Assembly (NCBI RefSeq): GCF_023169545.1
Contig: NZ_AP019769.1
Location: 480,001 to 512,000, forward strand
Reading direction: 5' to 3'
Source of the DNA: Nanobdella aerobiophila
GTDB lineage: Archaea; Nanobdellota; Nanobdellia; Nanobdellales; Nanobdellaceae
Length of the DNA stretch: 32,000 bases
The translations under genes were made by a program, and so were the position numbers. Positions 5,053 to 30,417 of the stretch are shown here, piece after piece. Position 1 is the stretch's first letter; each line of letters starts with the position of its first letter. A model generated the notes under the pieces. It was not told the DNA's origin and ran no database searches. It saw only the letters and a list, made by a program, of their open reading frames with translations.

Positions 5053-5257
5053 GAAAAAAATAAAGGTATTTATAGAAAAATATAATCTTGAAAAAGAGAT
5101 AGACTTTAATGGTAATAATATAAAAGAATTATTAAATATGCTAAATCTAGACCCATCAAGATTTTTAGTATTAAAAAATAATGAAATAGTAACTGAAGAG
5201 GATAATATAAATGAAGGAGATTATATAAAAATTCTAGATTCCGTATCGGGGGGATAA
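5051..5257 (+). CDS. ThiS/MoaD-family ubiquitin-like small protein (SAMP-like), C-terminal GG
   Basis: 68 aa ending ...ILDSVSGG. Size, beta-grasp-like pattern (VLKNNEIV...EGDYIKIL) and the terminal Gly-Gly fit ThiS/MoaD/SAMP. Confidence 0.7.
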   Translation: MKKIKVFIEKYNLEKEIDFNGNNIKELLNMLNLDPSRFLVLKNNEIVTEEDNINEGDYIKILDSVSGG

Positions 5258-5291
5258 AATTTATATATAATAGAGGATTTATCATAACCTT

Positions 5292-6209
5292 ATGTATGAC
5301 CCTTATTATATAGATTATTATAATATTATAAAAAAATATGAAAATTTAGAAACAAAAGACTATAAAAAAATATTAATATCTGGAATGGGCGGTTCTGGAA
5401 TAAATGGCGATTATATTATACCAATATTAAATAATAGAGAAGTATATGTACTAAAAGATTATTTTTTACCAGAATTTGTAGATGATGAATGGTTAAATAT
5501 ATTTATTTCTTACTCCGGGGATACAGAAGAAACTATAAGTTCTATGAATGATTCAATAAATAATAAATTTAATACTATAGCAATTTCTGCTGGAGGGGAG
5601 ATGGAGAGGATAGCAAAAGAAAAAAATTTATATTATATCAAAATAGATAAAAATTTTCCAGCTACAAGATACACTTTTCCAATAATATTAGGAATTTTAT
5701 TGTCAATATTAGATAAAAACAAATATTATGAATTACTAGATATATTAAAGGATTATAAAGAAAAATTGAGGGACCTATCTTTATATGTAGATGATATAAA
5801 AAATCCTATAATGATATATACTGATAAAAAACATGAATCTTTAGCTTTAGGATTGAAAATGCATTTAAATGAGGAGGCAAAATGGTTTACTCAATATGGA
5901 ATCATATCTGAATATAATCATCATGATTTAGAAAGTATTAGTAAATTAAATATAGATTTTATATTATTAAAATTCAATTATTATCAGAGAATTGAATATA
6001 GAATAAATTATTTAAAAGATTTATTAGAACAATATGGAAATAATGTCTTATTATTTGATTTAAAATATAGAAATTTATTAGAAGAAATCGTATTAGGTAC
6101 ATTATCATTTAGAACATTTACATTAAAACTAGCAGAAAAATTAAATGTAGATCCATATCATAGTAAAAATATTGCTGGTTTAAAGGCATTTCTGAAAAAT
6201 ATTAAATAG
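5292..6209 (+). CDS. Bifunctional phosphoglucose/phosphomannose isomerase family protein (SIS domain)
   Basis: 305 aa. Motifs ILISGMGGSGINGD and ISYSGDTEET are typical of the archaeal PGI/PMI SIS family. Its last ~255 nt are partly duplicated at 13646-13775. Confidence 0.75.
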   Translation: MYDPYYIDYYNIIKKYENLETKDYKKILISGMGGSGINGDYIIPILNNREVYVLKDYFLPEFVDDEWLNIFISYSGDTEETISSMNDSINNKFNTIAISAGGEMERIAKEKNLYYIKIDKNFPATRYTFPIILGILLSILDKNKYYELLDILKDYKEKLRDLSLYVDDIKNPIMIYTDKKHESLALGLKMHLNEEAKWFTQYGIISEYNHHDLESISKLNIDFILLKFNYYQRIEYRINYLKDLLEQYGNNVLLFDLKYRNLLEEIVLGTLSFRTFTLKLAEKLNVDPYHSKNIAGLKAFLKNIK

Positions 6210-6240
6210 TTTTTATTTTATATTGGTTTTCATATCTAAA

Positions 6241-6296
6241 GAATTATTAAATAGATAATATTAAACTTATACCTTTATATAAGTAGTTAATTAAAT
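6241..6296 (+). pseudogene. Degenerate relic of the 3' end of the ATPase constant module (a lost 'copy 0')
   Basis: gaattattaaatagataatattaaacttatacctttatataagtagttaattaaat aligns, with internal deletions, to ...ccagaattattaata...aatagataatattaatattaaatttatacctttatataagtggttattaaat, which ends each of the five ATPase genes. Confidence 0.55.
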
Positions 6297-6583
6297 GTTG
6301 ATTAATTTTTTATCAAAAAATTTTTATTATTCTTTACTATCTCTTAATAATATGAAATTATTAAATACTCATAATAATCTATAAATCGCGTTTAATTGAA
6401 TATGAAATAAAAATACCTTTTATAAATTTTAGTAAATAGTTTTTATTAAACATAAAGTATAATTTATCTGCAAAAATATTATTGATACTTAATTTATTAT
6501 ATATATAATTTTTGTCTTTATATTAAAAATTTCCCTATAAGAAAGAAAATTTTTATAAAAAATTTCCTCATTGTAAATAAAAT

Positions 6584-7846
6584 ATGAATGCAAAAAATAT
6601 AATGGATTTCTTCGAAGAGTATAATAATTTTAATCCTGAAATTATTGAAAGAGAATTAAAAATTGAAATAAATAGCAACTTTATAACTACAATAATAGGT
6701 CCAAGAAGGTCTGGTAAAACATATTATTTATTATATTTAAGAAAATTATTAAGAGATCCTTTATATTTAAATTTTGAAGATTCTAGATTAATAGATATAG
6801 ATTATAAAGATTTAAGAAATGTAATAAGATTATTCAAAGAAAATTATTATGAACCGCATACATTGTTATTAGATGAAATACAGAATTTAAAAGGGTGGGA
6901 AATTATTATTAGAGAATTACATGATTTAAAAAAATATAATATTATTATTACAGGTTCTTCTTCTAAATTATTATCGAAAGAAGTTGCAACACAATTAAGA
7001 GGAAGAACTATAACTTATTTATTATTACCTTTTTCTTTTAGGGAATATATAAAGATAAAAAATATTGAAATAAATTTAAGGTCTTTAGAAAATATTTCTG
7101 ATATAAAAAAATTATTGAAAGAATATTTAGAATATGGTGGATTTCCTGATGTAACATTTTCGGATAATAAAACAAAAATATTGAAAGAATATTCAGATTT
7201 AATATTATTTAGAGATTTTATAGAAAGATATAAAATAAAAAATTTAGAATTAGCCCGATTTTTACATAACTTTTTATTATCAAATTTTTCTGAAGAAATT
7301 TCAATAAATTCTATATACAATAAAATAAAAAGCATGAATATAATGTTATCAAAAAATACAATATATAACTATATAACAAAAATGGAAGATACAATTTATT
7401 TTTTCTTATTAGATAAATATTCAAATAAAATACATATTAGAAAAACTTGGCCAAAGAAAATATATATTTGTGATACAGGTTTATCAAAAACAATTAGATT
7501 TTCTGAAGATATTGGTAAATTAATGGAAAATATTATTTATTTAGAATTATTAAGAAAAACAAATATTAATCCATTATTAGAAATATATTATTTTAAAGAT
7601 TATCAACAACATGAAATAGACTTTTTAGTTAAAGAAGGAAATAATATTAAACAATTAATACAAGTATCATATATTAATAATTATGATGAAATAGATAAAA
7701 GAGAAATAAGATCATTATTAAAAGGATATAATTTATTTAATAAACCAGAATTATTAATAATTACATGGGATTATGAGGATAATAAAATAATAGATAATAT
7801 TAATATTAAATTTATACCTTTATATAAGTGGTTATTAAATATATGA
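6584..7846 (+). CDS. AAA+ ATPase, COG1373-like (AAA_14 + DUF4143-like), paralog 1
   Basis: 420 aa. Walker A GPRRSGKTY, Walker B LLLDEIQ, ITGSSSKLLSKEVATQLRGR, GGFPD, RDFIERYKI, CDTGL, ENIIYLEL, then the constant tail EIDFLVKEGNNIKQLIQVSYINNYDEIDKREIRSLLKGYNLFNKPELLIITWDYEDNKIIDNINIKFIPLYKWLLNI. Confidence 0.8.
   Translation: MNAKNIMDFFEEYNNFNPEIIERELKIEINSNFITTIIGPRRSGKTYYLLYLRKLLRDPLYLNFEDSRLIDIDYKDLRNVIRLFKENYYEPHTLLLDEIQNLKGWEIIIRELHDLKKYNIIITGSSSKLLSKEVATQLRGRTITYLLLPFSFREYIKIKNIEINLRSLENISDIKKLLKEYLEYGGFPDVTFSDNKTKILKEYSDLILFRDFIERYKIKNLELARFLHNFLLSNFSEEISINSIYNKIKSMNIMLSKNTIYNYITKMEDTIYFFLLDKYSNKIHIRKTWPKKIYICDTGLSKTIRFSEDIGKLMENIIYLELLRKTNINPLLEIYYFKDYQQHEIDFLVKEGNNIKQLIQVSYINNYDEIDKREIRSLLKGYNLFNKPELLIITWDYEDNKIIDNINIKFIPLYKWLLNI
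7613..7846 (+). repeat. Constant 3' module, copy 1 (234 nt)
   Basis: From gaaatagactttttag... to the stop. Near-identical at nucleotide level to 8952-9185, 10293-10526, 11622-11864 and 13287-13526. Identity with copy 4 extends upstream to 7523. Confidence 0.9.
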
Positions 7847-7859
7847 TTTTTTATAAATG

Positions 7860-7900
7860 CTTACCCCTTTAGGGGTAAGGATTTAATAAAATTTTTACCC
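7860..7900 (+). promoter_or_regulatory. Inverted/triple TTACCC(C) half-sites around the paralog-2 TATA-like box
   Basis: cttacccc-ttta-ggggtaag is a perfect 8-bp hairpin/palindrome (7860-7879). A third half-site ttaccc lies at 7895-7900. The AT box atttaataaaattttt sits between them, about 25 nt upstream of the ATG at 7911. Confidence 0.5.
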
Positions 7901-7910
7901 ATATAGTATT

Positions 7911-9185
7911 ATGGATATTAAAGATTATTTTATAAATAAAAAGGAATATATAAAGAGATTAAAAATATATCCAAGAGAACTTAGTATAAATATAAATAAG
8001 GAATTTGTTTTTTCGATAATAGGTCCAAGAAGATCTGGTAAAACATATTTCCTATATGATTTGATATTAAATAAATTAAAATTAAGAGATGAAGATTACA
8101 TTTTTATAAATTTTGAAGAAGAGGGGTTAGATTTTGATAAGGATAGAATTTATAATATAATAAAAAGTCACATTGAAATATATGAAAAAGAACCAGAATA
8201 TTTATTTTTTGATGAAATACAAAATCTAAAAGATTGGGAAAAATTTATTTATACATTATATGAACAAAAGAAATATTATATATTTATTACAGGTTCTTCA
8301 TCAAAATTATTATCAAAGGAAATTGCAACGCAATTTAGAGGAAGGAGTATAAGTTATATTATATTACCATTTAATTTTAAAGAAATATTATATATAAAGG
8401 GATTTGAAATAAAAAAATATTATACAATTAGTGAAAAAGGAAAAATTTTAAATATATTAAATAAATATTTACAATCTGGTGGATATCCGCAATTAATTTT
8501 AACAGATATAGATGAACAGGAATTTTTTAAATCATTAATAGATTCTATATTTTATAGAGATATCATAGAAAGATACAAGATAAAACAACAATATTTATTA
8601 GAACTAATTATAAAAATACTATCTTCTTCATTTTCTTCTCAATATTCGATAAATAAAATATACAATAGTTTAAAGTCATCCGGATTAAAAGTATCTAAAA
8701 AAACAGTATATAACTATATAAGATATTTGGAAAATGTTTTTCTAATTTTTTCTTTGAGACATTTTGATTTTTCAATCAAGAAAATGGAATTAGCAAATAA
8801 AAAATTATATTTTATTGATAATGGGATAATAAATTATTTATTAAATAATAGAATACCAAATAATATAGGAAGACTAATGGAAAATACTGTTTTTATTGAA
8901 TTATATAAAAAATATAAAGAAAATGTTTATTATTTATATGGAAATAATTATGAAATAGACTTTTTAATTAAAGAAGGAAATAATATAAAACAATTAATAC
9001 AAGTATCATATATTAATAATTATGATGAAATAGATAAAAGAGAAATAAGATCATTATTAAAAGGATATAAATTATTTAATAAACCAGAATTATTAATAAT
9101 TACTTGGGATTATGAAGATACAAAAATTATAGACAATATTAATATTAAGTTTATACCTTTATATAAATGGTTATTAAATATATAA
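7911..9185 (+). CDS. AAA+ ATPase, COG1373-like, paralog 2
   Basis: 424 aa. GPRRSGKTY, LFFDEIQ, ITGSSSKLLSKEIATQFRGR, GGYPQ, RDIIERYKI, IDNGI, ENTVFIEL, and the constant tail from EIDFLIKEG to LLNI. Confidence 0.8.
   Translation: MDIKDYFINKKEYIKRLKIYPRELSININKEFVFSIIGPRRSGKTYFLYDLILNKLKLRDEDYIFINFEEEGLDFDKDRIYNIIKSHIEIYEKEPEYLFFDEIQNLKDWEKFIYTLYEQKKYYIFITGSSSKLLSKEIATQFRGRSISYIILPFNFKEILYIKGFEIKKYYTISEKGKILNILNKYLQSGGYPQLILTDIDEQEFFKSLIDSIFYRDIIERYKIKQQYLLELIIKILSSSFSSQYSINKIYNSLKSSGLKVSKKTVYNYIRYLENVFLIFSLRHFDFSIKKMELANKKLYFIDNGIINYLLNNRIPNNIGRLMENTVFIELYKKYKENVYYLYGNNYEIDFLIKEGNNIKQLIQVSYINNYDEIDKREIRSLLKGYKLFNKPELLIITWDYEDTKIIDNINIKFIPLYKWLLNI
8952..9185 (+). repeat. Constant 3' module, copy 2 (234 nt)
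   Basis: Same block. Identity with copy 5 extends upstream to about 8877 (atggaaaatactgtttttattgaattatataaaaaatataaagaaaat...). Confidence 0.9.
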
Positions 9186-9238
9186 TTTCTATTTGTTCAT
9201 AACATCCTTTTATTATATATTGTAATATTTTATTTATC

Positions 9239-9268
9239 AGTGCGAAAATTTAATAAAAAGTTCGCACT
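9239..9268 (+). promoter_or_regulatory. 8-bp inverted repeat bracketing the paralog-3 TATA-like box
   Basis: agtgcgaa (9239-9246) and ttcgcact (9261-9268) flank aatttaataaaaag. The box centre is about 26 nt upstream of the ATG at 9279. Confidence 0.5.
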
Positions 9269-9278
9269 AATAGATAAT

Positions 9279-10544
9279 ATGATTGCAGATATATTATTAA
9301 GTCAAAAATATTATATGGATAAAGTTATTAATAGTTCTAAATTCATCGAAAGAGAATTAAAATTAATAAATACAAAATTAGTAAAGGTAATAACTGGTAT
9401 TAGAAGATCTGGAAAATCTTTATTTATTTATAATTATTTAAAAGATAAAAAATTTGCATATGTAAATTTTGATGATGATAGAATATTAAAATATAGTGCA
9501 GAAGAAATATATAAAGGACTATTACAAGCATATAATTTATTTGATATAATTTTATTTGATGAAATACAAAATTTAGAAAATTGGGAAATATTTGTTAATA
9601 GATTATATAATCAAGATTATGATATCTATATTACAGGTTCAAATTCAAAATTATTATCAAAAGAATTATCTACACATTTAACTGGTAGGGCAATTTCTTT
9701 TACATTATTTCCTTTTTCTTTTAGAGAATTTCTTAAGGCAAAAGAATTTAAAATAAATACCTATGAAGATTATGAAAGAATAAAAGGATTATTAAGAGAA
9801 TATTTAGAATATGGAGGATTTCCAGAAATAGTTGTAAATAATGAAGATCCTCATATATATTTAAAGGAATTATATGATCGTATAATAAATGTTGACATAA
9901 TATATAGGTATAAAATAAAATATTCTAAGACATTTAAAGATATTTCATATTATCTATTATCAAATATTTCAAATAATATAACTTATAATTCAATAAAAAA
10001 GAATTTTAATTTAGGTAGTGATCATACTGCCTCAAAATATTTATATTATTTGGAAGAATCATTTTTATTCATATTTTTAAATAATTTTTCATTTAAATTA
10101 AAAGAAATAAATAAATCTCCTAAAAAAGTATATACAATTGATACAGGTTTTTATACATCATTAGGATATAAAGTATTACCAGATAATATTGGAAAACTAA
10201 TGGAGAATATTGTTGCAATTGAATTATTTAGAAGAAAAAGTTATTATAATAAAAATCTAGAAATATATTATTTTAAAGATTATCAACAACATGAAATAGA
10301 CTTTTTAATTAAAGAAGGAAATAATATAAAACAATTAATACAAGTATCATATATTAATAATTATGATGAAATAGATAAAAGAGAAATAAGATCATTATTA
10401 AAAGGATATAATTTATTTAATAAACCTGAATTATTAATAATTACTTGGGATTATGAAGATACAAAAATTATAGATAATATTAATATTAAATTTATACCTT
10501 TATATAAATGGTTATTAAATAATTCTTACATAAAAATTATATAA
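9279..10544 (+). CDS. AAA+ ATPase, COG1373-like, paralog 3
   Basis: The tracked ORF starts at GTG 9240, inside the inverted repeat. The ATG at 9279 (MIADILLSQ...) is preferred. GIRRSGKSL, ILFDEIQ, ITGSNSKLLSKELSTHLTGR, GGFPE, IDTGF, ENIVAIEL, constant tail. The C-terminus is extended (LLNNSYIKII) by a change at the usual stop. Confidence 0.75.
   Translation: MIADILLSQKYYMDKVINSSKFIERELKLINTKLVKVITGIRRSGKSLFIYNYLKDKKFAYVNFDDDRILKYSAEEIYKGLLQAYNLFDIILFDEIQNLENWEIFVNRLYNQDYDIYITGSNSKLLSKELSTHLTGRAISFTLFPFSFREFLKAKEFKINTYEDYERIKGLLREYLEYGGFPEIVVNNEDPHIYLKELYDRIINVDIIYRYKIKYSKTFKDISYYLLSNISNNITYNSIKKNFNLGSDHTASKYLYYLEESFLFIFLNNFSFKLKEINKSPKKVYTIDTGFYTSLGYKVLPDNIGKLMENIVAIELFRRKSYYNKNLEIYYFKDYQQHEIDFLIKEGNNIKQLIQVSYINNYDEIDKREIRSLLKGYNLFNKPELLIITWDYEDTKIIDNINIKFIPLYKWLLNNSYIKII
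10293..10526 (+). repeat. Constant 3' module, copy 3 (234 nt)
   Basis: Same block. Identity with copies 1 and 4 extends upstream to about 10258 (ctagaaatatattattttaaagattatcaacaacat). Confidence 0.9.
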
Positions 10545-10547
10545 TAC

Positions 10548-10579
10548 AATATACCAACTTTTATAAAAACTGGTATATT
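10548..10579 (+). promoter_or_regulatory. 9-bp inverted repeat bracketing the paralog-4 TATA-like box
   Basis: aatatacca (10548-10556) and tggtatatt (10571-10579) flank acttttataaaaac. The box centre is about 27 nt upstream of the ATG at 10590. Confidence 0.5.
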
Positions 10580-10589
10580 ATAATATACT

Positions 10590-11864
10590 ATGATTGATAA
10601 AGAGTTGGTGAAGAGATATATACTAGAATTCCAAAGTAAACCACCATCTAATATTAAAAAAAGAGAATTAAATATAACACCAATTAAAGGAAAAGCTATA
10701 AGTATAATAGGACCAAGAAGAGTTGGAAAAACATACTTCTTATTCTCATTAATTGATAATCCAGAAAGATATGTATATATAGATTTTGAAAATCCTATAT
10801 TTGCAAATTTCAAGCCTGAAGATATAATAAATATAGCTGATATCTTTAAAGAATTATATCCAGATAAAGAACCCATATTTCTTTTAGATGAAGTACAGGT
10901 AATAGAAGATTGGGAAAGAGTAGTTAGATATTTATTATCTAAGAATTATTATGTATATATTACAGGTTCTTCATCAAAATTATTATCAAAGGAAATTGCA
11001 ACACATTTAAGAGGTAGAACTATAACTTATAATATATTTAATTTAAGCTTTAGAGAATTCTTAAGATTTAAAGATATAAATTTTGAAGGTAAAGATTTTT
11101 ATCTAAATTATAATAAAATAAAATCTCTATTAAATGAATATATAAAATATGGAGGATATCCTGAAATAGTATTAAACGAAGATAAACTAAAACTATTACA
11201 AGATTATTTAACTACGGTAGTAAGTAGGGATATTATTGATAGATATATGATAAAAAATGAAAAAATTATAAATGAAATTTTATATTTTGCTATTAATAAT
11301 TATTCAAAATACATTTCATACAATTCTTTACACAAACTATTCAAACAATATGGCAAAAGTATTCATAAAATAACAATTATTAAATATTTATCATATTTCG
11401 AAGATTCTTTATTATTATTTTTACTAAAGAAATATTCTAAATCTATAAAAGAGATAATAGTATCACCTAAAAAAGTATATTTAATAGATACAGGATATGG
11501 AATATTTGGAAATAAAGATATCAGCAGGGATATGGAAAATATTATTTATTTAGAATTATTGAGAAAAACAAATATTAATCCATTATTAGAAATATATTAT
11601 TTCAAAGATTATCAACAACATGAAATAGACTTTTTAGTAAAAGAAGGAAATAATATAAAACAATTAATACAAGTATCATATATAAATAATTATGATGAAA
11701 TAGATAAAAGAGAAATAAGATCATTATTAAAAGGATATAATTTATTTAAAGAATATAATCCTGAATTATTAATAATTACTTGGGATTATGAAGATAATAA
11801 AATAATAGATAATATTAATATTAAGTTTATACCTTTATATAGGTGGTTATTAAATAATGATTAG
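10590..11864 (+). CDS. AAA+ ATPase, COG1373-like, paralog 4
   Basis: 424 aa. GPRRVGKTY, FLLDEVQ, ITGSSSKLLSKEIATHLRGR, GGYPE, RDIIDRYMI, IDTGY, ENIIYLEL, and the constant tail with the KEYNPELL variant. Confidence 0.8.
   Translation: MIDKELVKRYILEFQSKPPSNIKKRELNITPIKGKAISIIGPRRVGKTYFLFSLIDNPERYVYIDFENPIFANFKPEDIINIADIFKELYPDKEPIFLLDEVQVIEDWERVVRYLLSKNYYVYITGSSSKLLSKEIATHLRGRTITYNIFNLSFREFLRFKDINFEGKDFYLNYNKIKSLLNEYIKYGGYPEIVLNEDKLKLLQDYLTTVVSRDIIDRYMIKNEKIINEILYFAINNYSKYISYNSLHKLFKQYGKSIHKITIIKYLSYFEDSLLLFLLKKYSKSIKEIIVSPKKVYLIDTGYGIFGNKDISRDMENIIYLELLRKTNINPLLEIYYFKDYQQHEIDFLVKEGNNIKQLIQVSYINNYDEIDKREIRSLLKGYNLFKEYNPELLIITWDYEDNKIIDNINIKFIPLYRWLLNND
11622..11864 (+). repeat. Constant 3' module, copy 4 (243 nt)
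   Basis: Same block, with a 6-nt insertion (aaagaatataatcct versus aataaacca) shared with copy 5 and one extra codon before the stop. Confidence 0.9.
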
Positions 11865-12240
11865 TTTTTTAATAACTCTTATTTGTTATATTTTATAATA
11901 AAGATATTAAAAATTTTCTAAATCTATTATAATTGAGTATAAATGATTATTTTCCATTAAAAAATAAATTTTCTCCCGAGATCTCCATATTTTATGCTAT
12001 AAGTAAATGAATAGCATCTTCTAAATTTATTCTATGATATAAAAATCTATATTTTTATAGGCATTAATTAATAATACAGATATATTATAGAAATATAAAA
12101 TAAAAATGCTTAATATAAAAAATATTATAATATAAATAATTTAATATTTTATATTTAATAACTCTAAAGTTATTTAATTAAATTTTTATTGATTATATTT
12201 ATAATTATAATACTACTAAAAATATATATTATTATTGTAC

Positions 12241-12280
12241 AATATAGTGAACAAAATTTATATTTTTTGTACACTATAAT
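12241..12280 (+). promoter_or_regulatory. Imperfect 12-bp inverted repeat bracketing the paralog-5 TATA-like box
   Basis: aatatagtgaac (12241-12252) and gtacactataat (12269-12280) are complementary at 10 of 12 positions and flank aaaatttatatttttt. The box centre is about 27 nt upstream of the ATG at 12288. Confidence 0.45.
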
Positions 12281-12287
12281 ATATATA

Positions 12288-13526
12288 ATGAATATAAGTG
12301 AAGTATTGATAAGACAAAAGAATGAATTAAATTATATTTATTCACAAGAATTATTAGATAGAGAATATCATATTGATATAAATACAGATATTATAAAAGT
12401 AATAACTGGTATTAGAAGATCTGGTAAAAGTACTTTAGCATTATTATCATTAAAAGATAAAAATTTTGGATATGTAAATTTTGATGAAAGAGAATTAATT
12501 AATTTTAATTCAACAGATATAGAAAAAGGGATAAAAGAAATATATGGAGATACAAATATTTTATTTTTAGACGAGATACAAAATTATGATAAATGGGAAC
12601 TATGGGTAAATTCTTTATATAGAAGAGGATATAATATAACTATTACAGGATCTAATTCAAAATTATTATCAAAAGAATTATCTACACATTTAACTGGTAG
12701 ATATGTATCAATTGAGATTTTTCCATTTTCTTTTAAGGAAATATTAAATTATAAAAAAATTAATTTAAAAGATATAGAAATTGATAAAGAAAAAAAGGGA
12801 AAAATATTAAATATATTAAGAAATTATTTAGATACTGGAGGATTTCCTGAAGTAATTGTAAAAAATTTTGGAAAAGATTATATTAAAACATTATTTGATA
12901 GCATAATATATAAAGACGTTTTATATAGATATAAAATAAGAAATATTGAAAAATTACATGATTTAGCAAGATATTTAATATTTATATCATCTAATAGATT
13001 TACAATAAACAAATTATATAATATATTAAATTTTAATAGTAAAGTAACAGTAGAAAGATACATAGAATACTTAAAAGAAGCATACTTGATCTTTACACTA
13101 AGATATTTTTCATATAAAGAAAAAGAAAGAGTAAAATATCCTAAAAAAATATATATAATAGATAATGGATTTATAACAGCATTATCAGATAATTATTCAA
13201 TAAGTAGATTAATGGAAAATACTGTTTTTATTGAATTATATAAAAAATATAAAGAAAATTTTTATTATTTATATGGAAATAATTATGAAATAGACTTTTT
13301 AATTAAAGAAGGAAATAATATAAAACAATTAATACAAGTATCATATATTAATAATTATGATGAAATAGATAAAAGAGAAATAAGATCATTAATTAAAGGA
13401 TATAATTTATTTAAAGAATATAATCCTGAATTATTAATAATTACTTGGGATTATGAGGATACAAAAATTATAGATAATGTAAATATTAAATTTATACCTT
13501 TATATAAATGGTTATTAAATATATAA
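12288..13526 (+). CDS. AAA+ ATPase, COG1373-like, paralog 5
   Basis: The tracked ORF starts at TTG 12189 with a low-complexity I/L/Y leader. The ATG at 12288 (MNISEVLIRQ...) is preferred. GIRRSGKST, LFLDEIQ, ITGSNSKLLSKELSTHLTGR, GGFPE, IDNGF, ENTVFIEL, and the constant tail with the KEYNPELL variant. Confidence 0.75.
   Translation: MNISEVLIRQKNELNYIYSQELLDREYHIDINTDIIKVITGIRRSGKSTLALLSLKDKNFGYVNFDERELINFNSTDIEKGIKEIYGDTNILFLDEIQNYDKWELWVNSLYRRGYNITITGSNSKLLSKELSTHLTGRYVSIEIFPFSFKEILNYKKINLKDIEIDKEKKGKILNILRNYLDTGGFPEVIVKNFGKDYIKTLFDSIIYKDVLYRYKIRNIEKLHDLARYLIFISSNRFTINKLYNILNFNSKVTVERYIEYLKEAYLIFTLRYFSYKEKERVKYPKKIYIIDNGFITALSDNYSISRLMENTVFIELYKKYKENFYYLYGNNYEIDFLIKEGNNIKQLIQVSYINNYDEIDKREIRSLIKGYNLFKEYNPELLIITWDYEDTKIIDNVNIKFIPLYKWLLNI
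13287..13526 (+). repeat. Constant 3' module, copy 5 (240 nt)
   Basis: Same block, with the 6-nt insertion shared with copy 4. Confidence 0.9.
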
Positions 13527-13645: not shown

Positions 13646-13775
13646 AGATTTTATATTATTAAAATTCAATTATTATCAGAGAATTGAATATAGAATAAAT
13701 TATTTAAAAGATTTATTAGAACAATATGGAAATATATTTCTGTTTAAAGGCATTTTTGAAAAATATTAAATAGTT
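13646..13775 (+). pseudogene. Truncated duplicate of the 3' end of the PGI/PMI gene (direct repeat of 5954-6211)
   Basis: 13646-13734 is identical by eye to 5954-6042 (89 nt). 13735-13775 matches 6169-6211 with 2 substitutions and a 1-nt deletion, and about 126 nt in between are deleted. It ends with the same TAG+tt and directly abuts the stop codon of the convergent thioesterase gene. Confidence 0.85.
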
Positions 13776-16264: not shown

Positions 16265-16765
16265 TTATATTTCATCACTCCAGCATATCATTCTGTAGGA
16301 ACAATATTTACAATATTGTTTTTTTATTACTTTTGGTGGTTTATCGGATTTTAATATTTCTTTAATGTTCTTAACCATCTCTTCTATTTTCTTTTCATCT
16401 TCTTTAGATAATTCTATATATTCTTCTTTGCTTTCTTCAGGTATTATTAATTTTCCTTTTACATTCAAGCCCTTTCTATTTAAATAATATAAGTAATATT
16501 TTAATTGCCATAATGATGCTTCTTTAAATGAGGAAGACTTTTTAATTTCATAGATTAATACAAAATCTCTATATCTTTTCATAATATCTGGAGATATATC
16601 TTCAATTATTAATTTCTTTTGATATTTATATTTTTCTTTATAAAATAATTCTATATATTTTCCGATTAGCACCAGATCTGATTCATGTTCCATAGTTATT
16701 TTATGATGATAAAACCATAATTTCCTAGGACAAATAATAAAATAATAAATATAATTACCTTTCAT
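16265..16765 (-). CDS. cas4: CRISPR-associated exonuclease Cas4 (RecB-like, 4-Cys cluster)
   Basis: 166 aa. N-terminal Cys (ICPRKLWFYHH) plus C-terminal CKYCSYRMIC, and a central nuclease-like IYEIKKS. Its stop abuts the cas6 stop with zero spacer. Its ATG overlaps the upstream gene's stop by 1 nt (TAATG). Confidence 0.85.
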   Translation of the reverse strand: MKGNYIYYFIICPRKLWFYHHKITMEHESDLVLIGKYIELFYKEKYKYQKKLIIEDISPDIMKRYRDFVLIYEIKKSSSFKEASLWQLKYYLYYLNRKGLNVKGKLIIPEESKEEYIELSKEDEKKIEEMVKNIKEILKSDKPPKVIKKQYCKYCSYRMICWSDEI

Positions 16766-17385
16766 TAATACATTCTTAATAAATATCTTTCCAATTCTTC
16801 TGTACCAATTATAGACTTTTTTCCTAATATAACAGTTCTTTCTTCTAATTCTATTTCAATATTCTTAGTTTTAATAAAAGCTGTCAGATTTCTTTTGAAT
16901 ATTTCGGAATATTCTATGGGAACTCTAATTATAAAAGGATTCCTTCTTATTAATTCAGCATGAGTCTCTTCTAATAAACCTTTTTTATTTCTATCCTTTC
17001 TTCCATAAATAAAGAAATGAAAAGATACCTTCTTGCTATTTTTATTTTCCCCATAAATTATTTTTCTAAATATATATTCTTTAAATGATTTAAATGCCAA
17101 AATTTCTCTAATTGGTCTTTTATATTTTACAGACCAACCTTCTGATAATATTTCTATCAATAATGTTCCTAAAGAAAATAATTTATCAGATTCTATAATA
17201 TTTATATGATATATTTCTGGTAAATTTAGTTTTTTATATACATCATATGTGATTTTCTTGAATATAACTAATATATCAATATCTTTTGGATTTTCTTTTC
17301 CTCTAGTTATAGATCCGAATATTATAATATCTTCTATATTTTCATCTAATATTTTATGTAACTCTTCTATAATTTTATTTATCAT
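16765..17385 (-). CDS. Nucleotidyltransferase-domain protein (MNT-like) with ~100-aa C-terminal extension
   Basis: 206 aa. Minimal-NTase signature IIIFGSITRGKENPKDIDILVIF (G-S ... D-x-D). Overlaps the upstream HEPN-like ORF by 11 nt and cas4 by 1 nt. Confidence 0.7.
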   Translation of the reverse strand: MINKIIEELHKILDENIEDIIIFGSITRGKENPKDIDILVIFKKITYDVYKKLNLPEIYHINIIESDKLFSLGTLLIEILSEGWSVKYKRPIREILAFKSFKEYIFRKIIYGENKNSKKVSFHFFIYGRKDRNKKGLLEETHAELIRRNPFIIRVPIEYSEIFKRNLTAFIKTKNIEIELEERTVILGKKSIIGTEELERYLLRMY

Positions 17386-17713
17386 CTTTTATCATATCCT
17401 TTATTTTTGTAGCCCATTCTTTTAATGAACTTGCTTCTGAAGGTGTAATATTCCTATAATAAGCGCTAATGTATATTTCATATATACTTTGGTATATATC
17501 TGAAAGTTCTTTACAAACTTTGTCTATTATTTTTTTAGAATTTAAATATATTTTTCTTTCATCATGGTTTTTTACTGTTATATTATATTTTTTATATAAA
17601 TAATAATCTATCATTCTGAATATTGCTTTAGCATATAATACAGCAGATGCTGTATACCAACCTTTCTGATAATCGAACTCTGCAGGTTCTAATAATTCTT
17701 CCCATGGTTCCAT
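17375..17713 (-). CDS. Small helical HEPN-like protein (partner of the NTase)
   Basis: 112 aa. All-helical pattern with GWYTASAVLYAKAIFRMIDYYLYKK...KNHDER resembles COG2250-type HEPN proteins. A canonical R-x4-6-H motif is not evident (K-N-H instead). The call rests mainly on gene order with the NTase. Confidence 0.4.
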   Translation of the reverse strand: MEPWEELLEPAEFDYQKGWYTASAVLYAKAIFRMIDYYLYKKYNITVKNHDERKIYLNSKKIIDKVCKELSDIYQSIYEIYISAYYRNITPSEASSLKEWATKIKDMIKDDK

Positions 17714-17847: not shown

Positions 17848-19203
17848 ATGTCCATTTCTCAAAATATTGATTTAAGTAACTTAAACGATTCTTACTATTA
17901 TAGATTATTATATAATTTATTAGGCCATATGCTACAAAATAAAAAAATTAAAGATGTTGATAGATTATTAGAAATATTAAAAGATGAAATAGAGAAAACT
18001 ATTAAGGAAGATTTTAGAGCATCCATATTAGTTACTTCTGTTTCAAAAGAAGAAGGTAGAAATTTTTATTTACCAGGAGAATCATTGTTATCTGAGGATG
18101 AAGTAAAAGAAATAATAGATGATTTAGATGGAATTTATATATATAACAATAAAAGAATATTTTTATTCAAAATAAAAAATAGTAGAGTATTTGAAAATTA
18201 TAAAAAAGAAATTATAGCTACTATGAAAAAAATTTATAATGAAAAGAAAAATCAAATTGATGAAGGAATAGATTTTAAAAGATTATTGGAAAAAGTAAAT
18301 GCTCAAAAGATAAAAAAATTATATTTATCAAGTAGTGACCGTAATAATAAAAAAAGTAGTGGTAAGGCTTATTCAAATATAGCGCTCTTCTTAATATTAA
18401 ATGATTTTATCTTATATATTTTAAAATATATCAACAAATATTCTAATGTAAAAAGTGATGATGAATTATTAATTCAGCTATTAAATAGAGATGAAAATAT
18501 ATTATATGTACCAGCAGTTTTTACTGTTTTAGGAAGTGAAAAAAAGAGAAAATATTATATTAATAACTTAGTAGATTTTATTTTTAAATTCTATCCAGAA
18601 GAAAAAACAAAAGTAAGCGAATATTCAATTATCGGAAGTTTTTTATTTTCTTTTTATATAATAGATAAAGATTTTAGAGATAAAGTTCTAGGATTATTAG
18701 ATAAATTCTTATATTATTTAATTTTTAAAGAATATATAAATTGGGCTATTTTATCTCAAATGATCTCTATATTTTATGATTATAATTCTAAGAAATTTAT
18801 AAGAAATAATAAAAAACCTATCTCAATAAAGGGAATAAAGTTCTTCATCATGATGGATTTAAAAAAATATTTCCATTGGGCATATGAAACTGGAAAAACA
18901 ATAATAAAAGAAAGTCCTACAAACGGAAAAGATTATATAGAAGAAATAATAAAAAATATAAGAAAAGAAGAATTACCAGGTAGATTTAAAGATGAACTAT
19001 ATAATTCTTTATATAAAATAACTGAAAAAATAAAGAAAGAAAAAGGAAATCCTAACTTTAATTTAGAAATAGATAAAGATATAATTGAAAAAAATCATTA
19101 TGGAGACGAATTTTATAAATTGAAATCAGCTATTATGGCTGGATTTATTAATTCATTAAGTTATAAATCTGAAGAGGCCAATACAAATAATAATATATCA
19201 TGA
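17848..19203 (+). CDS. cas8b: Type I-B large subunit candidate (Cas8b-like)
   Basis: 451 aa, first gene of a cas8-cas7-cas5-cas3 operon with ATGA overlaps. No motif-level identification, so the call is positional. Confidence 0.6.
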   Translation: MSISQNIDLSNLNDSYYYRLLYNLLGHMLQNKKIKDVDRLLEILKDEIEKTIKEDFRASILVTSVSKEEGRNFYLPGESLLSEDEVKEIIDDLDGIYIYNNKRIFLFKIKNSRVFENYKKEIIATMKKIYNEKKNQIDEGIDFKRLLEKVNAQKIKKLYLSSSDRNNKKSSGKAYSNIALFLILNDFILYILKYINKYSNVKSDDELLIQLLNRDENILYVPAVFTVLGSEKKRKYYINNLVDFIFKFYPEEKTKVSEYSIIGSFLFSFYIIDKDFRDKVLGLLDKFLYYLIFKEYINWAILSQMISIFYDYNSKKFIRNNKKPISIKGIKFFIMMDLKKYFHWAYETGKTIIKESPTNGKDYIEEIIKNIRKEELPGRFKDELYNSLYKITEKIKKEKGNPNFNLEIDKDIIEKNHYGDEFYKLKSAIMAGFINSLSYKSEEANTNNNIS

Positions 19204-20111
19204 TGAAGACAGTACAAATATCTATATTGGCTAGAGTATACGGAAATGTAAATGCGGATGAGAATATAGGAAATAGAATAACATTAAAGAAATTTTATAG
19301 TTCAGAAGGAGAAGTATTGCCATTTGTTTCAGCTAGAGCGATAAAATATTCAATAAGAGAAGCATTAAAAAACTCTGAATTTAAGACAGATCCATTTGTA
19401 AATGAAAGAACAGTGCTTGCAGATTCTGGAGATCCTATAACTTATGTAGATAATGATTTGTTTGGATTTATGGTTCCAGTTAAGAGAGAAAAAAGTGGAA
19501 AGGGAGAATCTATTAAGAGACAAGCACCAGTAGCCATATCATATTTTAAAGCATTAAAAAATACACCTATTAGTACAGAATTTGGTGCTAAATTTCCTAA
19601 AGAGGGGGATTCGAATCCAACACCATTTGAAGTAGAAGTTTCTGACTTTATAGGAAAATTAAACGTGTTAATATATGATTATATTGGAAAATTTAAAGAA
19701 CAAGAATTAAAAAATGTAAAAAATAAAGAAAATTTAGAAAAAAATGGAGATTTTTATGTATTAAAAAAAGAGGAAAGAGAAAAAAGATTAGGAAAATTCT
19801 TAGAAATATTATTGACTCCCAAATATGTTTTACCAAGAAGGTCGAATTCATTAAATATACCAGAATATATAATAGCCATTATAGTATTAAATAAGAAAGG
19901 TGTATTACCCATATACCAGTATTTAGATTATGTTATTAAAGATGGTAAAATTGAGATAAATAAGGAAAAATTTGAAAAATTAGAGTCTCTATGTAAAAAT
20001 AGTGAAAGTGAATTATATATAATAGATTATGAAAACATATTAAATGAAAATATAGAGAATAAAATAGACGTAAATACTGTAATTCAAAAAATAAAAGAAC
20101 ATTTACTATGA
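19200..20111 (+). CDS. cas7: Cas7 (type I-B backbone subunit, Csh2/DevR-like)
   Basis: 303 aa. N-terminal ISILARVYGNVNADENIGN and LPFVSARAIKYSIREAL are typical of the Cas7 family. Confidence 0.8.
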   Translation: MMKTVQISILARVYGNVNADENIGNRITLKKFYSSEGEVLPFVSARAIKYSIREALKNSEFKTDPFVNERTVLADSGDPITYVDNDLFGFMVPVKREKSGKGESIKRQAPVAISYFKALKNTPISTEFGAKFPKEGDSNPTPFEVEVSDFIGKLNVLIYDYIGKFKEQELKNVKNKENLEKNGDFYVLKKEEREKRLGKFLEILLTPKYVLPRRSNSLNIPEYIIAIIVLNKKGVLPIYQYLDYVIKDGKIEINKEKFEKLESLCKNSESELYIIDYENILNENIENKIDVNTVIQKIKEHLL

Positions 20112-20836
20112 AAGCTCTTGCTTTTAGGATTTCTTTTTTTGAATCTTTATTTACAGTTCATTATACTAAAGCATTTAAATTATCTTATCCAACACTTTTA
20201 CCCATTACTGTTTTTGGTCTTTTAGGAAATATATGTGGATATGATAGGGGAGAAATAGTTGAAAAACTTGGAAATTTTTATTTTGGATCTACATTTATAA
20301 AAGGAGATCCTACAGAAGAAAATATAACTTTTATACAATTTAAGAATGAAGGAAAAGGTAAATATAGAAGTGGAGTTGTAAAAACTCAAGTATACAGTAA
20401 TTCTGAACATATAATCGTAGTAGCTGGGGAAGAAAATGAACTAAGAAGGAAGATAATAGATAAAATAAGAAAAATAGATTTAGATACTATAAAAGATGAA
20501 TATGGAGAATGGAAGATAATAAGAACTATTAGATATCCATACGGTGGACAAAATGATTTTTTTGCAAAAGATATACGAATTTTAGATAAACTTTTAGAAG
20601 TAGAAAAAGATAATATAGTCAGAGGTTACGTCGTTTCTTCATTAATCAAATCGATAAATAAAGATACAAATATAGAAATATTACCTGCAAGATACAAAAA
20701 TAGGTTAGAATATTTTATATTTGTTAAAAAGGGATATGTAGAATTGAAAGAACCTATAGATTCTGTATTAAAGATTCCTTTATATAAAATAAAAGACTTT
20801 GCCATATACAAGAATGTGCAAATCCCATCCTTATAA
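20108..20836 (+). CDS. cas5: Cas5 (type I-B)
   Basis: 242 aa. N-terminus KALAFRISFFESLFTVHYTKAFKLSYPTLLPITVFGLLGNICG matches the Cas5 N-terminal pattern (xYP-xPxxSxxxGLLGxIxG). Confidence 0.8.
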   Translation: MKALAFRISFFESLFTVHYTKAFKLSYPTLLPITVFGLLGNICGYDRGEIVEKLGNFYFGSTFIKGDPTEENITFIQFKNEGKGKYRSGVVKTQVYSNSEHIIVVAGEENELRRKIIDKIRKIDLDTIKDEYGEWKIIRTIRYPYGGQNDFFAKDIRILDKLLEVEKDNIVRGYVVSSLIKSINKDTNIEILPARYKNRLEYFIFVKKGYVELKEPIDSVLKIPLYKIKDFAIYKNVQIPSL

Positions 20837-24725: not shown

Positions 24726-26596
24726 GTTTAAATTAAATTAGAAATATTGAAAGGAAAAAATAGAATTTCATATTTTCAAATTAAAAGATGATAGTTTAAA
24801 TTAAATTAGAAATATTGAAAGAATTGATTTTTTAAAGATTGTTGTAAATTGTAGCCAATATTATTTGGTTTAAATTAAATTAGAAATATTGAAAGGAAAA
24901 AGTATTAAACTCTTTGATAACTAGAGGATACTTAAGTTTAAATTAAATTAGAAATATTGAAAGTCTTAAGATATTGTATGTGAAACAACTGTTACATTGC
25001 CTGTTTAAATTAAATTAGAAATATTGAAAGGTATATTTTATTTTCAATAGCCCACTGCAGTAGTTTGGGTGTTTAAATTAAATTAGAAATATTGAAAGAT
25101 TGTTTTTTATCTGAATTTTTTAATATATAATCAACATTGTTTAAATTAAATTAGAAATATTGAAAGTCTTCTTATTGTAGGGCTTTTAACTTCAGCTTTT
25201 ATTTCTGTTTAAATTAAATTAGAAATATTGAAAGATATTAGAATCATCCACCATGGGAAATTAGTCTGTTTTTGTCTTAGGTTTAAATTAAATTAGAAAT
25301 ATTGAAAGTTATCTTGCGTTATGTTCTCTAAAGTATTAGCTTTATTTTGTTTAAATTAAATTAGAAATATTGAAAGATATTTACTAATCTACAATTTATA
25401 AAACAATATATAGTTGTTTAAATTAAATTAGAAATATTGAAAGAAATCTATAGTTAATGTGTCTAAAATTTCACTATAATCGTTTAAATTAAATTAGAAA
25501 TATTGAAAGTACATATTATTAAAGTTAACTGTAACTGTGCTACCAAACTGATTTTGTTTAAATTAAATTAGAAATATTGAAAGTGCTTCTATCTTTTGTA
25601 AATGGATGGGGATTTTAAAATAGAAAATATGTTTAAATTAAATTAGAAATATTGAAAGGCATGGTTCTTTGATGTATATTACAAGGGCAAAAGGGTAAAG
25701 TTTAAATTAAATTAGAAATATTGAAAGTTCTTTTATCCAAATGCTTTAACTTCTTCAGGAACATATAATGTTTAAATTAAATTAGAAATATTGAAAGATG
25801 AAAATTTTTATGTTATAAACTTTCAATAAATCTAAAAAATAGTTTAAATTAAATTAGAAATATTGAAAGGACACATATTGAGTAACTATTGGAGTGAAAT
25901 ATGCTATTAGTTTAAATTAAATTAGAAATATTGAAAGTATACTTTTGTTGGAAATTCATATAGTGATGTAGGGAGCTTTGTTTAAATTAAATTAGAAATA
26001 TTGAAAGCTATTGGGAGTATTTATCTTCTCTACTTTCCCAAGCAGGGCTAAATTAGTTTATAAGTTTAAATTAAAATAGAAATATTGAAAGATTTGATTT
26101 TGAAATTCGGTAGAATATGCGTAGACATATATCAATGTTTAAATTAAATTAGAAATATTGAAAGGCAACGTCTAATAATGCTTTTACTTGTGGGTTCTTA
26201 ATATAATTAGCAAGTTTAAATTAAATTAGAAATATTGAAAGGTTCTAGATATTTCTTATATCCATCTTGGTCATATTTAGTAGTTTAAATTAAATTAGAA
26301 ATATTGAAAGATTAGCGATGCTTGTAAAGTAAATGTATATGTACCTGATGAGTTTAAATTAAATTAGAAATATTGAAAGTTTATATATGCTAAACAAATA
26401 CTTAATAAAGATGTAGATGTAATATGTTTAAATTAAATTAGAAATATTGAAAGTAACTATCCAAAATTTCTCTTACTTTTTTATTAAATTCTTCTAAGTT
26501 TAAATTAAATTAGAAATATTTAAATATTGAGCTTTTAGACTACTACGAACCTTTTTTATTAATCTTTTGTTTAAACGAAATTATAAATATTTAGGT
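24726..26596 (+). CRISPR. CRISPR array, 27 repeats of 28 nt (GTTTAAATTAAATTAGAAATATTGAAAG), 26 spacers
   Basis: Repeat starts: 24726, 24794, 24868, 24936, 25003, 25071, 25139, 25207, 25281, 25349, 25416, 25482, 25556, 25631, 25700, 25770, 25842, 25910, 25980, 26064 (one T-to-A variant), 26137, 26214, 26283, 26352, 26426, 26498 (3' end decayed to ATTTAAAT), 26569 (7 mismatches). Spacers are 38-56 nt. Confidence 0.97.
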
Positions 26597-29730: not shown

Positions 29731-30417
29731 TCACAAATCAAATAGATCTCTAATTAATTCATTATAAAAAATTATAAAAGACCATCTTTTTAATTCACTC
29801 TCTAATTCTCTCGATTCCCTAAATTTCTTCTTTATTATATTTTTAAATATTTTTTCATGATCATATATATAGTAATGAACTAATTCATGAAAAATTATAA
29901 AATTTATTAATTTTCTTGGAAGAACAATGGATAAGGAATTAATGGTAATTTTGTTATCCTTTATATTATAATATCCATATCTCGTTTTCATAGTTTTTAT
30001 TTCTATAGAAGGTATATTAATTATATTCAATTCCTTAGAATATTTATTTATTATATTTTTGGTATATTTATATAGAGTTTTATTTAAATAATTACAAAAA
30101 TCTTTCTTATTTTCAAAATTTACAATTATTATTTTTCTGGCACCATTTATTAAATATTTTCTCCTTATATTTTTTATTATTAATTTATATGGAACGCCAA
30201 ATATTGATAATTTTTCTATATAATCTTTATTTATTTCTGTAATTTTATATTTATCTAAAATATCAATAACTTTTTCTTTTATTTTATTAATATCTAATAA
30301 GTTTGTTTTTATTATAATTCTATCTCCTTTTATTTCTACATATAGATTTTTAGATTTTACTTTTTTTATTTCTAAATTAAATTCCAAATTATTTAACTTA
30401 ATAACTTCTCTCGACAT
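29731..30417 (-). CDS. DUF45 / YgjP-like HExxH metal-dependent hydrolase (COG1451-like)
   Basis: 228 aa. C-terminal FIIFHELVHYYIYDHEKIFKNII matches the DUF45 pattern (HEL-x-H...H...F). It overlaps the 3' end of hsdR by 25 nt, and the family is commonly linked to type I R-M operons. Confidence 0.65.
   Translation of the reverse strand: MSREVIKLNNLEFNLEIKKVKSKNLYVEIKGDRIIIKTNLLDINKIKEKVIDILDKYKITEINKDYIEKLSIFGVPYKLIIKNIRRKYLINGARKIIIVNFENKKDFCNYLNKTLYKYTKNIINKYSKELNIINIPSIEIKTMKTRYGYYNIKDNKITINSLSIVLPRKLINFIIFHELVHYYIYDHEKIFKNIIKKKFRESRELESELKRWSFIIFYNELIRDLFDL

Follow-up and report, generated by a model that had tools for sequence, protein, structure and literature searches.

The 32,000-nt stretch of the Nanobdella aerobiophila genome analyzed here (NCBI RefSeq assembly GCF_023169545.1, contig NZ_AP019769.1, positions 480,001 to 512,000 of the forward strand; hereafter the window, with positions counted from its first letter) carries an array of five intact, consecutive plus-strand genes, g1 to g5, which encode ATPases with strongly diverged bodies and nearly constant C-terminal tails. 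Nanobdella aerobiophila is a cultivated DPANN ectosymbiont with a genome of 668,961 bp, and the array (6584–13526) makes up about 1% of its DNA. Open reading frame (ORF) calling confirmed five tandem genes on one strand, with a regular spacing of ~1.33 kb and products of 413–434 aa, as the initial annotation had read them (five ATPases of ~420 aa). The genes are as follows (labels beginning with L denote loci in related genomes, described below):

6584–7846, plus strand: g1, 420 aa, AAA_14 and DUF4143 domains (PDC-S01), Walker A at aa 39 and Walker B at aa 94.
7911–9185, plus strand: g2, 424 aa, with 100% identity to an NCBI protein of Nanobdella aerobiophila (as has the product of the upstream phosphoglucose isomerase gene), the paralog chosen for the structure model.
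9240–10544, plus strand: g3, 434 aa, GTG start, ortholog of L001_+8911 in Nanobdellota archaeon YN1 and candidate donor lineage of the common tail.
10590–11864, plus strand: g4, 424 aa, with its nearest bodies in L007 and in L002_+12435 of YN1.
12285–13526, plus strand: g5, 413 aa when read from the ATG at 12285, whereas the ORF as called mechanically opens at a TTG at 12189.

The 445-aa form of g5 starting at the TTG is probably too long, the NCBI protein (P0028) having 413 aa.

All five proteins matched AAA_14 (E-values 1e-32 to 1e-35, 111–121 bits; Pfam gathering cut-off 27) and, C-terminal of it, DUF4143 (E-values 6e-15 to 3e-24, 56–86 bits; cut-off 28.1), which confirms the AAA_14 plus DUF4143 (COG1373) architecture proposed for them. 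PDLC04787, the PADLOC profile of PDC-S01, also matched each protein over its full length (E-values 6e-95 to 1.5e-101, ~400 of 412 profile positions). Five of the motifs listed in the initial annotation, G[PI]RR[SV]GK[TS], hhhDE[IV]Q, ITGS[SN]SKLL, EIDFL and GG[FY]P, were found in all proteins, while RD[IF]I[ED]RY is limited to g1, g2 and g4, and g3 and g5 differ. NCBIfam contained no curated family for these proteins, and a sequence search against PDB gave nothing relevant. The IstB-like helper ATPases of insertion sequences (IS), the housekeeping or IS-helper family against which the first reading had been set, were rejected: there was no IstB match at E ≤ 0.01 and no transposase domain in the neighboring ORFs with Pfam matches. 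STAND NTPases (Avs/NLR-like) were rejected as well, the structural likeness being weak (NRC2 and Avs4, E ~1e-4), with no repeat domain and a length of only 420 aa.

To compare bodies and tails, a codon alignment was used in which the tail was defined as the last 75 codons. Nucleotide identity among g1–g5 was 58–67% for the bodies and 93–97% for the tails, and protein identity was 30–47% and 91–97%, respectively. Where two paralogs have the same amino acid, the same codon was used at a frequency of 0.72 in the bodies versus 0.94 in the tails (the baseline of 0.72 is high because the G+C content of the window is ~18%). The divergence of the bodies and the near identity of the tails at the DNA level, synonymous positions included, were thus both borne out, and the contrast is far greater than chance would give. 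Along the nucleotide alignment, identity is 45–70% over most of the genes, rises locally at Walker B/sensor-1 and reaches 90–100% over the last ~230 nt in every pair. The onset is sharp, at the GAAATAGACTTTTTA (E-I-D-F-L) codons in each of the five genes, and the identity stops no more than 1–2 codons from the stop codon; in g3 it stops at ~10523 and six private codons follow. The homogenised tract covers 234–252 nt per gene (residues 348–424 in g2), and in some genes it is extended upstream:

7613–7846, plus strand: constant tail of g1, from E-I-D-F-L to stop.
8952–9185, plus strand: constant tail of g2, from the nucleotide alignment.
10293–10544, plus strand: constant tail of g3, the common part ending at ~10523.
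11622–11864, plus strand: constant tail of g4, with a 6-nt KEYN indel, as in g5.
13287–13526, plus strand: constant tail of g5, from the nucleotide alignment.
7523–7612 (g1) and 11532–11621 (g4), plus strand: extended tract of type A, from M-E-N to E-I-D-F (helix alpha1/beta1), 96–98% identical between g1 and g4 and partly present in g3.
8877–8951 (g2) and 13212–13286 (g5), plus strand: extended tract of type B, common to g2 and g5.

A further ~90 nt upstream of the tail are common to the pairs g1/g4 and g2/g5. Two markers can be followed inside the tails, namely the 6-nt indel of g4 and g5 and a DN (g1 and g4) or DT (g2, g3 and g5) variant. All four combinations of the markers are present, which indicates several short exchange tracts and tails that are not clones of one another. 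A run-length (Sawyer-type) permutation test gave mixed P-values; because few sites in the tails are variable, this test is ill-suited, and we relied on body/tail incongruence instead. Mean pairwise protein identity among the five paralogs is 0.15 in the N-terminal helix, 0.29 in the winged helix, 0.36 in the lid, 0.43 in the AAA+ core and 0.92 in the tail.

Relatives were collected by a scan with the tail sequence over one genome per species, which yielded 37 loci. The matches include 10 paralogs in Nanobdellota archaeon YN1 and tandem arrays of two to six genes in metagenome-assembled genomes (MAGs) of Aenigmatarchaeota. Among all sequences, the nucleotide identity of tails averages 80.5% within genomes versus 61.2% between genomes, and that of bodies 55.6% versus 51.0%. 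The nearest tail of every window gene lies in its own genome (95–97% nt). The nearest bodies are found elsewhere: that of g1 in YN1 (L002_+8953, 70% aa), that of g3 in YN1 (L001_+8911, 79% aa, with a tail of 87% nt) and those of g4 in L007 (67% aa) and YN1 (L002_+12435, 65% aa), while the bodies of g2 and g5 are only marginally closer to other genomes (53–54% aa). Because g1, g3 and g4 are closer to bodies of other genomes (65–79% aa), the paralogs predate the Nanobdella-YN1 split. In YN1, a tail type with a 4-aa insertion is carried by 7–8 paralogs with bodies 33–48% identical, including the orthologs of g1 and g4, and the YN1 ortholog of g3 retains the Nanobdella-type tail. We infer that, once Nanobdella and YN1 had separated, the tail of the g3 lineage probably passed to the four remaining Nanobdella genes. 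Tail identity above body identity was also detected in the arrays of L020, L016, L013, L010 and L011. As judged from these sequence comparisons, the pattern is one of concerted evolution of the tails, not of recent duplication or plain purifying selection. L007 (1329–10252) comes from a hot-spring MAG labelled Aenigmatarchaeota, and the body of its family member is 86% identical (aa) to a YN1 paralog, which suggests horizontal transfer or a binning/taxonomy problem.

In addition to the exchange of tails, we detected relocation of larger units. A unit at 6938–8134 of L013 is 98–100% identical to a unit of L020, which occupies a different array slot (the two are related MAGs). The shared stretch starts ~85 nt inside the tail before it, takes in the spacer and the entire body and reaches the body/tail junction; exactly at this junction the identity falls to 66–92%. 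Tail relics stand upstream of the first gene in the window, L020 and L013; the one in L020 is ~100 nt long and matches the 3' half of the moved unit's tail in L013, and the one in the window derives from a sixth tail:

6256–6289, plus strand: sixth-tail relic upstream of g1, which retains the final ~11 codons (identity at 32 of 34 nt, TAG in place of TGG, E-value 2e-11).

A tblastn search with the intergenic gaps returned this tail relic only. In a protein search with the tail alone, all matches were short fragments of 70–129 aa made up of tail, and orphan 99-aa tail ORFs were found in hot-spring metagenomes. Such a stand-alone 99-aa ORF is an orphan remnant of the family. One of them (L038, 10001–10300, JGI 3300005856; also in L039; 99 aa, 74% identical) lies beside a MazE-PIN pair, between topoisomerase and PAP2-family genes. 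The relocation and the relics fit insertion and excision of "intergenic plus body" units via homologous recombination between tails. In the scanned window ORFs (110 aa or longer), four of which had no Pfam match at all, Pfam detected no recombinase domain. An integron or another site-specific cassette system was rejected as a candidate: the scanned ORFs contained no recombinase domain, the Rfam scan matched a tRNA-Ser alone and no RNA family within the array, and the repeats are coding tails.

To place the tail in the protein, g2 was modeled with AlphaFold2 (predicted local distance difference test score, pLDDT, 91.5). In the model the protein is an Orc1/Cdc6-like AAA+ ATPase with a helical lid, a winged helix and an McrC-like PD-(D/E)XK domain. 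The top Foldseek matches of the whole model were the archaeal AAA+ protein 2fna, 2qby (Orc1/Cdc6) and RFC, and Walker A (GPRRSGKT), Walker B (DE[IV]Q) and the sensor-1 region (ITGSSSKLL) were all found. Because there is no Pfam match to the Cdc6/Orc families, the proteins are not called Orc1/Cdc6. For a separate model of residues 288–424 the best structural matches were McrC chains (probability 1.0, TM-score 0.45–0.55), followed by Card1, Cdn1, DdmD, EndoMS and the Avs4 nuclease, all of them PD-(D/E)XK proteins matched with modest scores (best E-value 1e-3). DUF4143 is placed in the PD-(D/E)XK superfamily in PMC3424549. The core of this fold in the model consists of a helix (316–338), three strands (339–344, 347–355 and 358–365), a second helix (376–388) and a last strand (393–398). 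The constant tract includes strands beta2–beta4, a helix and, C-terminally, a hairpin and a short helix. The variable part before the boundary holds strand beta1 and helix alpha1, on which the conserved Glu sits. By the model, the constant tail is therefore the C-terminal two-thirds of the McrC-like PD-(D/E)XK domain; since the boundary cuts through the nuclease domain, the tail is not an autonomous module, and the discrete effector or partner-binding module that the initial annotation had seen in it did not hold. Of the conserved residues (g1 numbering), E315, E344 and D346 do not vary, and R373 and E374 vary little if at all.

On both sides of the array stands a copy of the 3' end of the phosphoglucose isomerase (PGI) gene, the two forming a direct repeat:

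5954–6211, plus strand: left repeat copy, the intact 3' end of the PGI gene (5292–6209).
13646–13775, plus strand: right repeat copy, a partial PGI 3' end that abuts the stop of the convergent thioesterase gene.

The two copies are 100% identical over 89 nt (5954–6042 vs 13646–13734) and 97% identical over 34 nt (6178–6211 vs 13742–13775); the right copy has an internal deletion, 135 nt (6043–6177) being replaced by 7 nt. Upstream of the array, synteny with YN1 extends over rpS3Ae, a methyltransferase, two ORFs without assigned function, a ThiS-like ORF and PGI, and it breaks right after PGI. The block is thus an insertion between housekeeping genes, as had been suspected. The repeat is the trace expected of a Campbell-type single-crossover insertion of a circle with that homology, which presumably took place here, and recombination between the two copies would excise a circle of ~7.7 kb. 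The ThiS/SAMP-like ORF upstream of PGI (~5080–5290, plus strand) is small, shorter than the ORF-length cut-off applied, and ends in ...VSGG; it matches the ThiS gene that YN1 has in the corresponding position (L040).

PDC-S01 is described in PMC12988326 as an unvalidated candidate in which an ATPase is fused to a PD-(D/E)XK domain (for the domain architecture see also PMC3424549), which agrees with the earlier statement that no function of this architecture is experimentally established. By the same account (PMC12988326), PDC-S01/COG1373 ranks fourth in frequency among the candidate defence systems of prokaryotes and is especially abundant in Archaea. The PDC systems of PADLOC became candidates through members that lie inside known defence loci (for PDC-S01, restriction-modification (R-M), BREX or DISARM). 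In Nanobdella the array stands outside any defence system, with cas6 at a distance of 1.86 kb and hsdR at ~17 kb. A homolog in L007 abuts a type I cas operon related to that of the window, and one related array region holds HEPN and AAA_21/SMC-like genes. A defence role is plausible. We infer that the proteins may be NTP-dependent, nucleic-acid-targeting conflict or defence factors with a common nuclease half-domain; divergence is greatest in the winged helix and the lid, a hint that the paralogs differ in recognition specificity.

Taken together, it seems likely to us, with some reserve, that the locus consists of five anciently diverged, intact PDC-S01/COG1373 paralogs whose tails have been homogenised by recurrent intragenomic recombination, which behave as cassette-like units and which were inserted as a block at PGI. 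In this mechanism, homologous recombination (gene conversion and crossing-over) that starts from the invariant E-[IV]-D-F codons would keep the 3' ~234 nt nearly identical, and the g3-lineage tail would have overwritten the tails of the other four genes. Recombination between tails would also insert, excise and reorder "intergenic plus body" cassettes, with relics remaining at the array edges, and the whole block would have entered beside PGI by a Campbell-type single crossover that duplicated the 3' end of that gene. The diversity of the bodies would be maintained by selection, and the homogenisation of the tails would be tolerated or favoured. Tail sharing that arises by intragenomic gene conversion and cassette recombination would need no functional reason and would exclude none.

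Several observations weigh against this interpretation. L024 and L028 show no homogenisation, and two YN1 paralogs have tails that diverge from the YN1 consensus type, L002_+11086 (11087–12385, in the middle of a four-gene array; 75–78% nt) and L004_-923 (17998–19326; 61–66% nt); with one of the two standing mid-array, proximity alone does not determine homogenisation. Recombination in Nanobdella is deduced from sequence comparison, and an exact search of metagenome contigs for a 38-nt piece of tail DNA gave no match and no second Nanobdella strain. The evidence for cassettes comes from MAGs, and the assemblies of L013, L016 and L020 could hold repeat mis-joins; their tails are mutually different, which argues against simple repeat collapse. 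With respect to function, motif III reads Q-V-S/T-Y in the clade and N-V-S/T-Y (mostly N-V-S-Y) in YN1-type tails, without the canonical Lys, so catalytic competence is uncertain and the active site, on its sequence, may be variant or inactive. The one PDC-S01 representative assayed (PMC12881386) does not belong to those candidates that gave E. coli protection from T4, T5 or T7, although such an assay may say little about archaeal proteins. Finally, arrays in other genomes lie mostly among housekeeping genes, so that the association with defence loci postulated in the initial annotation was seen in L007 and in the array region with HEPN and AAA_21/SMC-like genes, but not for most arrays.

The alternative that survives best concerns the reason why the pattern is kept. 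The common tail might be selected, by offering one C-terminal surface for mixed nuclease dimers or oligomers or for one genome-specific partner or regulator, and homogenising conversions would then sweep because they restore compatibility. This refines the shared-module idea of the first reading, is compatible with conversion and differs only on why the pattern is maintained; we regard it as possible but rather doubtful. PD-(D/E)XK nucleases are commonly dimeric, and genome-specific tail types do occur. The dispersed copies of YN1 are also homogenised (96% nt between L003 and L002, which are separated by more than 100 kb), the tracts of all five genes have one common start and run precisely to the stop, and the segment from Walker B to sensor 1, also well conserved (~81% nt), is not homogenised. 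Against selection for a shared surface, the tract boundary cuts the nuclease fold and delimits no domain, some paralogs of one genome keep divergent tails, and a small partner gene was found neither within the array nor next to it, none of the small ORFs in the gaps 6212–6583 and 11866–12284 being credible.

The genes might also be selfish or mobile cargo, such as plasmid-maintenance or partition-like ATPase-nucleases or addiction modules, with arrays representing decaying remnants of integrated elements. Homologs were found on 242 plasmid records and a few phage records, the duplication of the PGI target gene that brackets the block is typical of an integrated circle, and the housekeeping contexts of other arrays and the lack of phage protection in the published assay point in the same direction. 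However, all five genes are intact and so are their Walker A and B motifs and conserved C-terminal residues, and no integrase, transposase, Rep or relaxase Pfam match was obtained in the scanned flanking ORFs (a few of which lacked any match). The locus is on the margin of a region with CRISPR-Cas, HEPN-MNT and type I R-M genes, the L007 homolog adjoins a cas operon, and PADLOC nominated the family from members inside R-M, BREX or DISARM loci. We consider such an origin unlikely.

Purifying selection combined with extreme A+T codon bias, acting without recombination, is very improbable and already contradicted: the tail is rich in residues conserved across the family, and the same-codon baseline is already 0.72 in the bodies at ~18% G+C, but same-codon use climbs to 0.94 in the tails, and tails are only 72–78% identical (aa) between genomes (84–86% for the g3 ortholog) versus 91–97% within the window. 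Furthermore, orthologous bodies bear different genome-specific tails, including the 4-aa indel, and one and the same body is joined to different tails in L013 and L020. Recent whole-gene tandem duplication followed by faster divergence of the bodies, for which the same-strand arrangement and regular spacing could be cited, is scarcely tenable and likewise contradicted, as the first reading had already argued, by bodies of 30–47% aa (58–67% nt) identity, of which those of g1, g3 and g4 are clearly, and those of g2 and g5 marginally, nearer to other genomes.

Within recombinational homogenisation, a more far-reaching version would make the constant tail the recombination handle of a cassette-exchange system for an archaeal repertoire of immune sensors, in which "promoter plus body" circles leave and re-enter at any tail, whether of their own array, of another locus or of another cell. 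We think this improbable at present. The data show relocation with breakpoints in tails and genome-specific tails on bodies that are found elsewhere; they do not show programming, frequency or adaptiveness. The encoded nuclease could stimulate the exchange at tail DNA in a homing-like manner. If such an exchange exists, DPANN archaea with small genomes could recombine their recognition modules and pass them on to each other without giving up the one nuclease half-domain matched to their genome.

Compared with known systems, the array shares with PDC-S01 the full-length profile matches and the ATPase plus PD-(D/E)XK architecture, but in the literature covered PDC-S01 is treated as a single-gene candidate, whereas here five genes form an array with a homogenised 3' tract and cassette-like turnover. 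McrBC, Card1, DdmD and Avs4 also couple an NTPase to PD-(D/E)XK, and in the model the C-terminal domain is nearest to McrC; unlike McrBC-type systems, ATPase and nuclease are predicted in one polypeptide, the ATPase is Orc1/Cdc6/2fna-like and not McrB-like, and motif III is without the canonical Lys. By analogy, plant NLR clusters and other immune multigene families that evolve by unequal crossing-over and gene conversion may be compared, since they are established cases of tandem NTPase immune-type paralogs in which exchange homogenises one part while the other stays diverse; they belong to another protein family and domain of life, and the array differs in having a 234-nt 3' tract with a fixed boundary and a putative immune role. 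With the antigenic-variation systems pilE/pilS and vlsE and with Rhs/CDI arrays the locus has in common a constant segment that could serve as recombination handle, together with relics or orphans (6256–6289 and L038). In contrast to them, each cassette is a complete gene with a predicted promoter and not a silent donor, the constant part is C-terminal, and nothing points to programmed or high-frequency switching. Integron arrays resemble it in their same-strand units, apparently excised and reinserted; here there is no integrase and no attC-like structured site, and the recombination site is coding and presumably served by general homologous recombination.

In the parts of the DUF4143, COG1373 and PDC-S01 literature covered, tandem arrays, domain-restricted concerted evolution and cassette turnover are not described; as far as these sources extend, the family is a known candidate and its recombination-driven cassette organisation is undescribed. 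The array indicates that in DPANN the PDC-S01 family forms multi-paralog arrays, even at the cost of ~1% of the ~669-kb genome of a symbiont. The recognition-side domains keep ancient lineages while the nuclease-side tract is homogenised per genome, and such opposite regimes are what one would expect where a diversified sensor repertoire feeds a common output. Tails acting as crossover sites that move whole genes would provide a simple, recombinase-free route to cassette turnover. Should the homogeneity of the tails prove functional (mixed oligomers or a shared partner), it would reveal a new principle in the organisation of immune-type genes of prokaryotes; were it a neutral by-product, the locus would still be a clean case of domain-restricted concerted evolution in archaea.

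The spacers between g1 and g5 are 64, 54, 45 and 420 nt long, and their sequences are mutually unrelated. A TATA-like box, TTTWATWA, lies 29–33 nt upstream of the starts of g1–g4 (a pattern defined post hoc, which ~4% of random 20-nt zones contain):

6551–6558, plus strand: TATA-like box of g1, 33 nt upstream of the start.
7882–7889 (g2), 9208–9215 (g3) and 10559–10566 (g4), plus strand: TATA-like boxes of the pattern TTTWATWA.

Each gene may thus be transcribed from its own TATA-like box ~30 nt upstream, and the separate promoters of the initial annotation are plausible on this basis. A perfect G+C-rich hairpin, CTTACCCCT-TT-AGGGGTAAG (7860–7879), is located 14 nt after the stop of g1, in surroundings of ~18% G+C, and has no counterpart in the other spacers; it could be a terminator or a protein-binding palindrome. 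The 420-nt gap between g4 and g5 (11865–12284) falls in one of the bins of lowest G+C content in the window (0.157 at 11501–12500), and it contains no credible ORF and no tail relic.

Downstream of the array, the thioesterase gene is followed by a type I CRISPR-Cas locus with cas6, cas4, a HEPN-MNT pair, cas7, cas5, cas3 and cas1. Its distance from g5, given initially as ~1.9 kb, and the type I R-M gene at the end of the window were both confirmed, the latter as an HsdR fragment (30393–31943). Pfam gave no match for the putative Cas8 (17848–19203) and the putative Cas5 (20108–20836). Two further features of this region are:

16765–17713, minus strand: nucleotidyltransferase (MNT) and HEPN pair, between cas4 and the putative cas8.
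24727–26525: CRISPR array of 26 repeats with the core TTTAAATTAAATTAGAAATATTGAAAG and 25 spacers of 39–57 nt.

Comparison of the CRISPR spacers with the window and the related loci gave short chance matches only. An MNT plus HEPN pair is the architecture given for the candidate PDC-M05 in PMC12988326. Among the related loci, the region beside the four-gene array of L011 contains a HerA-like ATPase gene (11425–13146) that is split by an intein with a LAGLIDADG domain.

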